From positions 1 to 13,081 of the forward strand of contig NW_021826340.1 in assembly GCF_006345805.1 (NCBI RefSeq): a stretch of DNA of 13,081 nt, read 5' to 3'. Origin of the DNA: Octopus sinensis. Its lineage: Eukaryota. The notes below the pieces were generated by a model. That model did not search any database. It saw nothing but the letters and a program-made list of their open reading frames with translations, and was not told the DNA's origin. Position 1 is the stretch's first letter, and every line of letters begins with the position of its first letter. The position numbers and the translations under genes were made by a program. This document shows, piece by piece, positions 4,204-10,979 of the stretch.

Positions 4204-4682
4204 AATAATATATAATAATAATGAAATTATTGTATACAGTGCTCAGGTGCACCACAACTTGTCAGAGTATATGCAGTAATGTACAAATGTCTGGAAAGCG
4301 AACAATGCATGAGTCAGATACATGCTTGTGTGTGTATGGAGGGGAGAAAATCAGGTGTAGTGTTGGCGAATCTCAGAAAGCATTGAAGTTTTGAAGGATG
4401 CAGTGCTCCGACAACTAACAACTGATGCCGGCAGTTTGTTCCATGCTTCAGCAACTCTCAGCGTGAAAAAATGTTTCCTGAAGTCATGGGAGCTGTGCTG
4501 TTTTCAGACTTTGTAAATATGTCCACGGGTGTTAGATGGGTGGAGTTTGAATAGGTGCTCAGAGTTATTGTTTGTACGATGGTTGATAATTTTATGAGTG
4601 TCTGCCAAATCAGCCGCCAGACGTCGGAGTTTCAATGTGTCCATGCCCAGGAAAGTAAGGCGTTCAGGATATGGCAAATGCC
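4204..4682 (-). mobile_element. CR1-clade LINE 3' fragment (ORF2 C-terminus, 3'UTR, (ATT)n tail), non-functional
   Basis: 4680->4351 translates HLPYPERLTFLGMDTLKLRRLAADLADTHKII...NTRGHIYKV*...FRKHFFTLRVAEAWNKLPASVVSCRSTASFKT...HYT*. These are typical CR1 motifs (YxERL, RR..DL, TRGH, FFxxRVxxxWNxLP). Premature stop at 4504-4506. Confidence 0.92.
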
Positions 4683-4876
4683 AAATGATATTAATAGGTT
4701 AATATCAGCTCGGTTGTAATTGAGTCGATCCACGTTCTATGACGCTCCACCAATGTCCTTCCTGTTGATTATCTCTTTTATTCTTTTGCAGAGACAGTAT
4801 TTCTAGGAGTAAAATCTTTATCCAATAGTGATGATGGTGGATGATGATGAGGAGTATAATTTTTATCCATGTAGAT

Positions 4877-5094: not shown

Positions 5095-5210
5095 ACAGCC
5101 ATGCCTGCGCTTATAGCATATTTTAAACATTGAATGACTATGGAAGTCTTGTACATTATTTACATTATTTACAATTGACGGAAATTCCAAGTTCGATTCC
5201 AGGCAGTGAT

Positions 5211-5213
<3 letters not shown>

Positions 5214-5301
<88 letters not shown>
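5214..5301. repeat. (AAT)n microsatellite
   Basis: About 29 units with one interruption near 5259. Confidence 0.97.
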
Positions 5302-5305
<4 letters not shown>

Positions 5306-5354
5306 CATCGAAAGATACCTTAGGAATGAGAACCCAGGTTCGAAATTTCCCCAA

Positions 5355-5400
5355 GACACCTGTTGAAGGCTGGAGGGTAAATCGGCCGAAACGTTGTGTT
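5355..5400 (+). ncRNA. Minimal type I hammerhead ribozyme motif, core-mutated (CUGUUGA for CUGANGA)
   Basis: Helix I gacac (5355-5359)/gtgtt (5396-5400); core ctgttga plus an extra A (5360-5367); helix II ggctgg (5368-5373)/tcggcc (5382-5387); gaaa (5388-5391) followed by cgtt, forming palindromic aacgtt in place of helix III. Confidence 0.65.
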
Positions 5401-5545
5401 AACAACAAACAAGATGAGGACAGATTTCCGTCAAATGTAAATATTGTACGTACTTCCTCATTTCTTAAACATAGAACTGTATGAGAGCCTTGTTAAGTAA
5501 AATAGAAATCAAAGGGCTCCATCGGCAAAACACGGTCGAGAACCA

Positions 5546-6993: not shown

Positions 6994-7138
6994 GGCGCAG
7001 GAGTGGCTGTGTGGTAAGTAGCTTGCTAACCAACCACATGATTCCGGATTCAGTCCCACTGCGTTGCATCTTGGACCGACCAATGCCTTGTGAGTGGATT
7101 TGGTAGACGGAAACTGAAAGAAGCCTGTCGTATATATG

Positions 7139-7171
<33 letters not shown>

Positions 7172-7408
7172 GTATGTGTGTGTGTTTTTGTGTGTCTGTG
7201 TTTGTTCCCCTAGCATTGCTTGACAACCGATGCTGGTGTGTTTACGTCCCCGTCACTTAGCGGTTCGGCAAAAAGAGACCGATAGAATAAGTACTGGGCT
7301 TACAAAAAAAATAAGTCCCGGGGTCGAGTTACTCGACTAAAGGCGGTGCTCCAGCATGGCCGCAGTCAAATGACTGAAACAAGTAAAAGAGTAAAAGAGT
7401 AAAGAGTA
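6994..7408 (+). mobile_element. SINE family A, near full length, 26-bp internal deletion
   Basis: ggcgcaggagtggctgtgtggtaag head, internal (TA)n(TG)n, tail aagtaaaagagtaaaagagtaaagagtaa. Confidence 0.93.
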
Positions 7409-7710: not shown

Positions 7711-7940
7711 GGCGGTGAGCTGGCAGAAACGTTAGCGCGCCGGGCGAAATGCTTAGCGATATTTCGTCTGTTGTTACGTTCTGAGTTCAAATTCCGCTGA
7801 GGTCGATTTTGCCTTTCATCCTCTCGGGGTCGATAAATAAAGTACCAGTTTCGTACTGGGTCGATGTAATCGACTTAATCCCTTTGTCTGTCCCTGTTTG
7901 TCCCCTCTATGTTTAGTCCCTTGTGGGTAGTAAAGAAATA
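7711..7940 (+). mobile_element. SINE family B (B2 tail), full length (230 bp)
   Basis: ggcggtgagctggcagaa head, B-box-like gagttcaaattcc, ends gggtagtaaagaaata; sits in TA/TG-rich simple sequence. Confidence 0.93.
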
Positions 7941-9443: not shown

Positions 9444-9883
9444 CGTATAGGTATGGCTGTGTGGTAACATGGTTCCGGGTTCAATCCCTCTGCGTGGCAA
9501 CTTGGGCAAGTGTCTTCTAGTACAGTCTCGGGCCGACCAAAGCCTTGTGAGTGGATTTGGTAGACGGAAACTGAAAGAAGCCCGTCACACACACACACAC
9601 ACATATATAATTATGGACGAAGATATGCTGCATTTTTATACATACACACATGTATATATGTATGTACGTGTGTATGTATATGTTTGTGTGTCTGTGTTTG
9701 TCCCCCCAACACCGCTTGACAACCGATGCTGGTGTCTTTACGACCCCATCACTTAGCGTTTCGGCAAGAGAGACCGATAGAATAAGTACTACGCTTGCAA
9801 AGAATAAGTCCAGGGGTCGATTTGCTCGACTAAAGGCGGTGCTCCAGCATGGCTGCAGTCAAATGACTAAAACAAATAAAAGA

Positions 9884-9886
<3 letters not shown>
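9444..9886 (+). mobile_element. SINE family A with head deletion and 39-bp insert in the internal microsatellite
   Basis: High similarity to the 1283 and 6994 copies; ggtaa joined directly to catgg in the head. Confidence 0.92.
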
Positions 9887-9923
<37 letters not shown>

Positions 9924-10029: not shown

Positions 10030-10540
10030 CTCGTGGCTTCTGATCTTAATTGATTGGAAGTGTTATCATGTATATTGTTTTGTCTTGGTACAGCAAATAT
10101 TCTGCTCAATACCACAGATTTGCTTGTCAGTTGTTTGACCATGACCAGTTGACCATGTCCCTTAATGGCTGACGATATGTGCGTATCTGACCAGGAGCAG
10201 AAGTAGTGGGGCAGCATCATAGCCGTGTGTTGAAAGGAATTCTTGGAGGTTTGGATAATTCACCTTTGGGCACACGGGCGGTTCGTTCAACAACCTTAAA
10301 CAATCCTTATTCAGGGACCTTTTGAGCGGGATGGGCTACTCGGCCAGAAGAAAATTCTAACTGTGCCCCACCTGCAAGGTCATGCGCTGTTTATCTTGAT
10401 ATGAGATCACCATGTCGCGCACATCTTGTGATGCATGTGCTTGGTGTACCCTTATCAGACGGGTAGTCATGATGGGTATACTGGGTTTCGTATATTTTAC
10501 CCCACAGTCACTTTGATGGCATGCACTGCTCTCTCACTCA
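10030..10540. mobile_element. Probable interspersed repeat (LINE terminal/UTR region, unclassified) abutting (AAT)n
   Basis: ~500-bp block richer in GC than its flanks, with a sharp end ctctctcactc|aataat. It looks like a sequence I recall as repeated in octopus (unverified). No protein motif found; left boundary uncertain. Confidence 0.45.
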
Positions 10541-10555
10541 ATAATAATAATAATA

Positions 10556-10623
<68 letters not shown>
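10540..10623. repeat. (AAT)n microsatellite
   Basis: About 27 units with one interruption. Confidence 0.97.
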
Positions 10624-10625
<2 letters not shown>

Positions 10626-10670
10626 TAGACCAAAGCCAAACTTACAAATATTAGACCAAAGCCAAACTTA
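10624..10670 (+). repeat. 21-bp direct repeat x2 (period 26)
   Basis: attagaccaaagccaaactta at 10624-10644 and 10650-10670. Confidence 0.9.
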
Positions 10671-10979
10671 GTTCGCTTTTGGTGTATCTTTGAATCTCAG
10701 TGTAGGTCTTCCATAGTTTCTTTTCCCCTTGCATAGTTGGTAGTAAAGGAGTTCTCTGGGCAGTCTGTTGTCGTCCATAGTGTACGTATCCAAACTGACA
10801 TAAATTTTTATCAATAAAGACTTCTATAATAAGAGGCAGATCAGCACACTGGAAGGTCTCTTTTTTGTTGATCTTGTCAAAGTGATATTTATAATTTGTT
10901 GTAACTGTCTCATTATATATGCCTGTAACTTTTCTATTTGAGCCTCATAGACTATCCAGGTTTAGGCTCCATACAGCAG
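10668..10979 (-). mobile_element. RTE-clade LINE fragment (post-RT C-terminal region), decayed
   Basis: With two frameshifts and one stop it reads LLYGA*TWIVYEAQIEKLQAYIMRQLQQIINIT/DKINKKETFQCADLPLIIEVFIDKNLCQFGYVH/MDDNRLPRELLYYQLCKGKRNYGRPTLRFKDT, matching RTE motifs LLYGxETW, GHVxRM, RLP, GKRxxGRPxxRxKD. Confidence 0.88.

Follow-up and report, generated by a model that had tools for sequence, protein, structure and literature searches.

Layout of the window copy

The window, by which we mean the whole 13,081-nucleotide stretch of Octopus sinensis DNA that was analysed, carries a short repeat copy enclosed by a degenerate 14-bp target-site duplication. The left copy of this duplication (5139..5152) and the right copy (5480..5493), neither of which is assigned to a strand, are identical at 11 of 14 positions and differ by three transitions, a match reached by 6 of 1,184 random pairs. 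Next to the left copy lies a tail-less, 5'-truncated second arm on the minus strand (5153..5186), recognised by its blastn/nhmmer match to the family body and equivalent to body positions ~120-152 plus one extra 9-nt unit. This inverted arm overlaps by 3 nt (5184-5186) the 3' part of a tRNA-like head (5184..5215, plus strand; head positions ~46-76), which includes a B-box at 5191-5200 and lacks an A-box because the copy is 5'-truncated. The head is followed, also on the plus strand, by an (AAT)n spacer (5214..5301), whose length differs between family copies, and by a pLTR body (5304..5481) with 93% identity to family copy L008. Within the body, an ATG at 5326 opens a 52-codon frame that in long copies extends into an RT-endonuclease ORF.

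The body contains a plus-strand minimal type I hammerhead motif (5355..5400), assigned from the sequence, the family data and consensus features (PMC4209133). Helix I (5355-5359/5396-5400) and helix II (5368-5373/5382-5387) are visible in the sequence, as is the core, which begins at 5360 and has U at 5363 (the A6 position); they are completed by the GAAA-CGUU segment (5388-5395), with the cut predicted after 5395. Further along the plus strand, a body-tail stem-loop (5412..5463; z -2.37 for copy L002 and -1.30 for the window copy) includes a 7-bp stem (5414-5420/5455-5461), and the ends of tail-less arms fall within this stem-loop. The optional ~30-nt Penelope 'tail' (5449..5481, plus strand) is present on this arm only and shares its last 2 nt with the right copy of the target duplication. 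A sequence-only reading had described the B-box, the (AAT)n run, both helices, the core, the GAAA-CGUU segment and the 7-bp stem, and all are found at the coordinates it gave, as is the inverted recurrence of 5424-5448 at 5161-5185 (23 of 25 matches). A second GGTTCGAA motif that it placed at 5337-5344 is likewise there; this motif sits within the coding frame with no A-box preceding it, and is probably incidental as a promoter motif.

Other repeats are scattered through the window. The minus strand of 4250-4870 holds what is left of the 3' end of a LINE-like reading frame, now broken and presumably of CR1/L2 type. Copies of other short repeat families occupy 1284-1672, 6995-7401 and 9513-9894, more short repeat copies are found at 1731-1829, 2366-2464, 2550-2648 and 7762-7860, and one of the window's other short repeat families starts tRNA-like. 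Within 10380-10680, a second (AAT)n is preceded by another repeat, also present in L027, and followed by a 20-bp direct repeat.

Family size and conservation of the hammerhead motif

The hammerhead fold of the window copy taken by itself is not above chance (z -0.94), and Rfam returned no hammerhead call on the window, on family copies or on the relative L258. We accept the motif as real because the family keeps it, and not because of its fold score. An exact 33-mer with the intact hammerhead core occurs 1,997 times in the genome against none for the reversed control, which removes the possibility, named in the earlier reading, that the sequence is single-copy. The 180-nt body gave 1,552 first-look candidates in its own genome, and among the 40 that were scored the full-length ones show 89-93% identity. 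Since the 33-mer is present in 6 of 53 arms not selected on that stretch, its occurrences translate into an estimate of about 18,000 arms, and as a rough range the octopus genome carries ~9,000-46,000 arms of this pLTR family.

At position 6 of the hammerhead, 165 of 172 arms have A and four have U, so that the A anticipated at 5363 is indeed the consensus and the A6-to-U change of the window copy is rare within the family. The entire core is kept in 91 of the 172 arms, and the family majority sequence has an intact minimal core (CUGANGA / GAAA / NUH), helices I and II and a palindromic remnant of helix III, which upholds the proposed minimal Penelope-type hammerhead. As in the minimal PLE hammerhead, helix I has 5 bp, helix II has 6 bp and helix III is absent, and the two also share an extra nucleotide before G10.1, the G10.1-C11.1 pair and the palindromic 15.2-16.2; nothing in the motif of this predicted ribozyme differs except U at position 6 of the window copy. 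Judged against the hammerhead consensus, the window copy, which fails at A6, is probably catalytically dead, as had been suggested. Helices I and II show no covariation within the family, each pair having 0-2 compensatory and 10-28 disrupting changes, as neutral decay from one source predicts. The lower mutation rate of the core (3.6% vs 5.0%) is not read as selection, because 30 loci were picked for an exact core match. Other PLE families of the same genome (L065, L080, L086-L089, L094, L097, L107 and L108) have different minimal hammerhead-like motifs, one of which has U at position 3.

The pLTR of a coding Penelope-type element

A full short copy begins with a tRNA-like head of 76 nt that contains both an A and a B box, continues with (AAT)n and a ~145-nt body, and may end in a ~30-nt tail; it thus includes the upstream A-box that the earlier reading expected of full copies. 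The spacer often contains or adjoins other inserted repeats (L003, L024, L033, L039, L126 and L135). Where coding sequence is attached, a unit reads from the ORF stop through ~30 nt to the tRNA-like head with its A and B boxes, and then through (AAT)n, the hammerhead body and the tail into the next unit's ORF. In 29 of 30 loci picked by ORF-end DNA, one of which is the query locus, the endonuclease C-terminus gives way directly to the head, and the head also follows the endonuclease in 17 of 20 loci found using a foreign endonuclease protein. At the other end of the ORF, body and tail are in frame with it in all 25 loci picked by tail plus ORF start (four are repeats of other loci). Twelve majority tiles give an open frame of 770 codons from inside the body to the end of the endonuclease, the body encoding the ORF's initial ~52 codons. 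The same body sequence is found both after ORF ends and before ORF starts, as a pLTR in partial tandem that overlaps the ORF start. One locus, L178, has an inverted arm, a tail, a broken RT-EN ORF, a head, a body and a tail, all within an 11-bp duplication, and L179 and L180 are near-identical segmental copies of it.

The coding partner was found through an unbiased 33-mer sample, in which 5 of 30 loci have a shared coding stretch that translates to a GIY-YIG C-terminus, with a PLE-type RT lying upstream. A partner search via Pfam GIY-YIG gave 50 loci, all of other PLE families and none matching the body, and was discarded. Among five family frames scanned, RVT_1 is above the Pfam cut-off in two, and the RT also has weak matches to telomerase RT (E 0.0013). 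Pfam made no call on the family endonuclease frames, and the endonuclease is recognised from its motif and homologues. The element thus has one ORF with a PLE-type RT and then a C-terminal GIY-YIG endonuclease, a feature of Penelope/Poseidon elements. Its translations, set against the definition given in PMC8557442, have an RT-endonuclease junction without the CX2-5CxxC finger and CCHH within the endonuclease. In a quick RT tree, built with no named clade references, the octopus element falls with P0004-P0007 and apart from two other octopus PLEs. The ORF, pLTR, inverted-arm, tail and target-duplication features of EN+ Penelope/Poseidon-clade PLEs are all found in the octopus element.

We consider it hardly in doubt that the element is the pLTR of a protein-coding Penelope/Poseidon-type retrotransposon; the explanation as a whole, a Penelope retrotransposon end with a tRNA promoter, appears probable. 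Of the earlier proposal, mobilisation by an RT/GIY-YIG protein is borne out, with the element's own ORF encoding both RT and GIY-YIG endonuclease, and the suggested match of the 3' part to the pLTR of an autonomous Penelope extends to the entire unit including the tRNA head. What falls away is a separate non-coding tRNA-SINE/retrozyme hybrid, as head and body belong to a coding element and short copies show no diagnostic difference.

Alternatively, the pLTR could have given rise to an independent non-autonomous tRNA-SINE, with its short copies then amplifying themselves by means of Penelope enzymes. Short copies have the head-spacer-tail layout of SINEs and far outnumber long ones, as seen from the five of 30 33-mer loci with ORF DNA, and read depth drops steeply along the ORF. 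Short and ORF-attached pLTRs nevertheless have an identical majority at every position, the one head site that differs in frequency doing so because of the query used, and the body frame is open and in register with the ORF. The head itself is part of the coding element, and the short copies do not behave as a distinct non-coding lineage whose similarity to its partner is confined to the 3' end. Moreover, PAc needs RNA extending 172 nt into the ORF past the tail (PMC11167929), and solo copies would lack that. We therefore regard an independent SINE as improbable, and return to the short copies as products of the coding element.

The copies diverge by 4.6-7% and their ORFs are broken, which points to an old burst of this element, and no intact young copy was found among the family copies examined. 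The ORF sequence was also found in sequencing runs of four other organisms. A protein search with the 52-codon peptide matched only two predicted host proteins; the predicted octopus proteins P0002 and P0003, one of them annotated as a dystrobrevin beta isoform, start with the pLTR-encoded peptide, through either exonisation or a gene-prediction artefact.

Paired arms, tails and target duplications

Many insertions of the family are head-to-head pairs inside one 8-15 bp duplication. Among 88 loci, 48 have two head-to-head arms, and these comprise 43 with one tailed and one tail-less arm, two with two tail-less arms, three with a short arm and none with two tails. The 26 two-arm loci from sets not selected for tails are similarly distributed (21 tail plus tail-less, two with two tail-less arms, three with a short arm, none two-tailed). 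Target duplications scoring at least 10 were found in 17 of 34 two-arm loci against 4 of 562 mismatched pairs. The window copy fits the one-tail pattern, with its tail-less inverted arm at 5153-5186, 3-nt overlap, truncated head and 11/14 duplication. The view of the inverted partial arm as a Penelope signature is strengthened by these 43 of 48 loci, and a one-tailed inverted-arm architecture has been described for PLEs (PMC8557442, PMC3846280). For PAc, two RT start sites and cutting of both strands have been reported (PMC11167929), and the 43-to-0 one-tail rule, together with the target duplications, provides genomic support for this two-start-site, two-strand priming seen in vitro.

We further note several features of the arms themselves. 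In 44 two-arm loci, private substitutions are common to both arms of an insertion at 11 of 4,786 sites, 2.8 times the frequency found when arms from different insertions are compared (173 of 208,549). At the inner RT start site, the number of copies of a 9-nt unit differs between arms (window 5153-5170, L039, L040, L119, L124 and L126), suggesting slippage or repeated priming at that site. In seven loci (L208, L219, L199, L205, L209, L025 and L049) a new head or body is fused directly onto the first ~135-430 nt of the ORF that follow the tail, as though RT had jumped between RNA molecules, and some arms begin that far into the ORF (L201, L202, L215 and L218).

The ends of copies also bear on the retrozyme route, in which dimeric hammerheads would cut tandem units and the circularised RNA would be copied into DNA. 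A hammerhead is present, and retrozymes have been proposed as PLE derivatives (bioRxiv 10.64898/2026.07.22.740005). Copies end at tail sites and at the head, however, and not at the cut site; they are mainly single or head-to-head rather than tandem arrays, and the units differ from the non-coding tandem units, each with a hammerhead, of non-LTR retrozymes. Among the read ends and joints listed, which come from libraries not suited to circular RNA, none falls at the cut site. The predicted cut site falls within the ORF start, as it does in PAc, for which cleavage required the protein and was dispensable for insertion in vitro (PMC11167929). A retrozyme origin is accordingly very improbable; the hammerhead is likely carried along as a pLTR component, and is predicted to be inactive in the window copy.

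The tRNA-like head and its 5' boundary

Among 12 genomic tRNA genes the head is closest to tRNA-Arg (52.5-53.5 vs shuffle maxima of 32-39), a comparison that spanned only six amino-acid types and does not fix the specific source. The combined A- and B-box pattern is present in 17 of 25 unselected heads. The head no longer folds as a tRNA, and Rfam and ARAGORN made no tRNA call for the element on the window, the family copies or L258. Low-threshold ARAGORN runs on relatives yielded noise and were rejected.

The 5' boundary of the head is sharp. Of 66 heads that extend to position 3 or less, 55 end within 0-9 nt upstream and none at 10-19 nt; five others are mirror arms and six run on for at least 22 nt. 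One of the counted stops, L033, is in fact a long copy that has undergone a small deletion. In the least biased sample the pile-up weakens to five stops vs three continuations. The upper limit of the boundary lies ~13-15 nt before the A-box, which is the usual distance for tRNA-type Pol III starts.

We also find that TTTT (T4) is absent from the majority head and body and from the 770 sense-strand codons. Own-codon shuffling predicts 2.8 occurrences, with 121 of 4,000 shuffles as low as observed, and a free third-position model predicts 3.9, with 46 of 4,000 as low. The P value depends on the null and the tiling (0.01-0.14 overall, 0.01-0.03 in the cleanest test), and own-codon values of 0.10 and 0.14 came from earlier tilings with partial or out-of-frame tiles, since superseded by the 12-tile set. 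A comparison with T4 rates in other octopus PLE families was set aside because those have more Phe.

These patterns can be compared with those of 33 relatives from metagenome contigs, whose pooled T4 count is 259 against 247 expected. The lowest P among them belongs to L258 (2 vs 7.0 expected); of the 36 3' flanks that are visible, that of L258 alone has the A- and B-box pattern, which is found in 5 of 7,200 shuffled flanks. In the quick tree L258 and the octopus element are not sisters, the tRNA resemblance of L258 is marginal (38.5 vs a shuffle maximum of 35), and relatives without the A- and B-box pattern are almost as T4-depleted (L289, P 0.017; L268, P 0.033). On the contig, L258:1-5390 is a tandem Poseidon-type PLE with two T4 runs per unit, and L258:2815-2910 has an A/B-box-like stretch ending in CCA, with a short AAT run next and a hammerhead after it. 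From these sequence features, L258 may possibly represent an independent promoter capture.

RNA-seq reads of the family are abundant, lie equally on both strands and have no shared start or end, and 83-84% extend into unlike flanks. Because of these properties, the reads probably derive from copies inside host transcripts.

The sharp 5' boundary and the absence of T4 are consistent with a Pol III start, as a fit and not as proof. The same pLTR could instead carry its tRNA piece as a passenger, from an old SINE or retro-tRNA insertion, in an element made by Pol II, with the boundary arising from fold-back self-priming at a hairpin or from a coincident Pol II start. A hairpin does span the 5' boundary (z -2.37), and rotifer pLTRs without tRNA heads also start with palindromes, for which self-priming is described (PMC3846280). 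Known PLE pLTR promoters, among them the internal ones of Penelope and Chlamys, are of Pol II type (Inr/DPE/TATA, intron; PMC2377424), and the private changes shared by arms of one insertion are what snap-back or gene conversion would produce. Against this, the palindromic junctions observed are perfect, with no sign of the 2-nt bulge that the genomic hairpin has, which suggests that the cDNA ends inside the hairpin, and the tail-less arm is sometimes the longer one (L139, L004), for which simple snap-back fails unless a later deletion is assumed. The tRNA fold has been lost while the A and B boxes are intact, and a passenger would leave the T4 depletion unexplained. We think the passenger reading unlikely, and lean towards a Pol III start for short copies. 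That Pol III makes the entire coding RNA is a more tentative suggestion, which we would not yet presume.

Proposed route of transcription and insertion

In the route that we propose, transcription would start in a tandem master copy, a few nucleotides before its head, and one RNA would run from the head through the first pLTR, the ORF and the second pLTR. By analogy with anole PAc, the RT/GIY-YIG protein would nick both target strands and prime two cDNAs, at two sites located at the tail end and ~30 nt inside. Priming in the first pLTR would yield copies of up to ~330 nt ending at the RNA 5' end, and priming in the second would yield long 5'-truncated copies. The two cDNA ends may then be joined head-to-head via a short palindrome or microhomology.

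The most far-reaching form of this reading is an autonomous coding retrotransposon whose whole ~2.7-kb RNA is made from a captured Pol III tRNA promoter, with T-run terminators purged from its coding strand, SINE-like tip copies shed, and at least two captures in the Poseidon clade, that of L258 being independent. We put this forward as a conjecture that could well prove wrong. SINEs are by definition non-coding, driven by Pol III and dependent on retrotransposons that Pol II drives; a coding Penelope whose own terminal repeat contains a tRNA promoter would blur that division. The 'SINE' fraction of octopus, reported as large, would then partly consist of pLTR remnants from a coding element. 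Were Pol III to make the full RNA, SINE and partner would be united in one molecule, providing a natural route to SINE birth, and translation of an uncapped Pol III transcript would become a testable question. Ribozyme-assisted cap-independent initiation has been reported in RNA viruses (PMC13725137), which serves only as a lead here.

Comparison with known systems

The octopus element shares most of its organisation with Penelope/Poseidon PLEs as described for PAc of Anolis (PMC11167929), for Pen2a_Av of Adineta (PMC3846280) and in PMC8557442. Common to them are a single ORF with RT and C-terminal GIY-YIG, a pLTR that includes the ORF start, a hammerhead that overlaps it, an inverted 5'-truncated pLTR, a one-sided ~30-nt tail and an 8-15 bp target duplication. 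Unlike the pLTRs in these descriptions, the octopus pLTR opens with a head that is derived from a tRNA and bears A and B boxes, followed by an (AAT)n spacer. None of the papers listed by full-text literature searches deals with a tRNA promoter in the pLTR of a PLE, and a consensus of the octopus family may already be deposited in Repbase, Dfam or a supplement. Octopus repeat papers mention, in their available text, Penelope and many unclassified SINE families and not a tRNA-headed pLTR.

Among elements with hammerheads, metazoan non-LTR retrozymes have a type I hammerhead related to that of PLE pLTRs and differ in being tandem and non-coding; the main text of their description has neither the word 'tRNA' nor 'promoter' (bioRxiv 10.64898/2026.07.22.740005). 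The Schistosoma Sm-alpha/Sj-alpha SINE-like elements (PMC6765202, PMC2770079), like the octopus element, combine a hammerhead with a tRNA-related repeat, in their case apparently Pol III-transcribed; they are non-coding and often tandem, with no coding partner, tail or inverted-arm signature stated in the available text. In the TRIMp3 elements Cassandra, Helenus and Ajax, a small-RNA-derived Pol III promoter lies in the terminal repeat, as we suggest for the octopus head, and is proposed to stem from a SINE insertion (Kojima 2024, PMC10886601). TRIMp3 elements are, however, non-coding LTR elements, and the same paper argues that their autonomous partners require Pol II, whereas the octopus head lies in the repeat of a coding element. 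TRIMp3 and the schistosome Sm-alpha/Sj-alpha are thus the nearest promoter precedents, both non-coding, and the unusual part of the octopus element is its tRNA-like head, the hammerhead and the window copy being ordinary.
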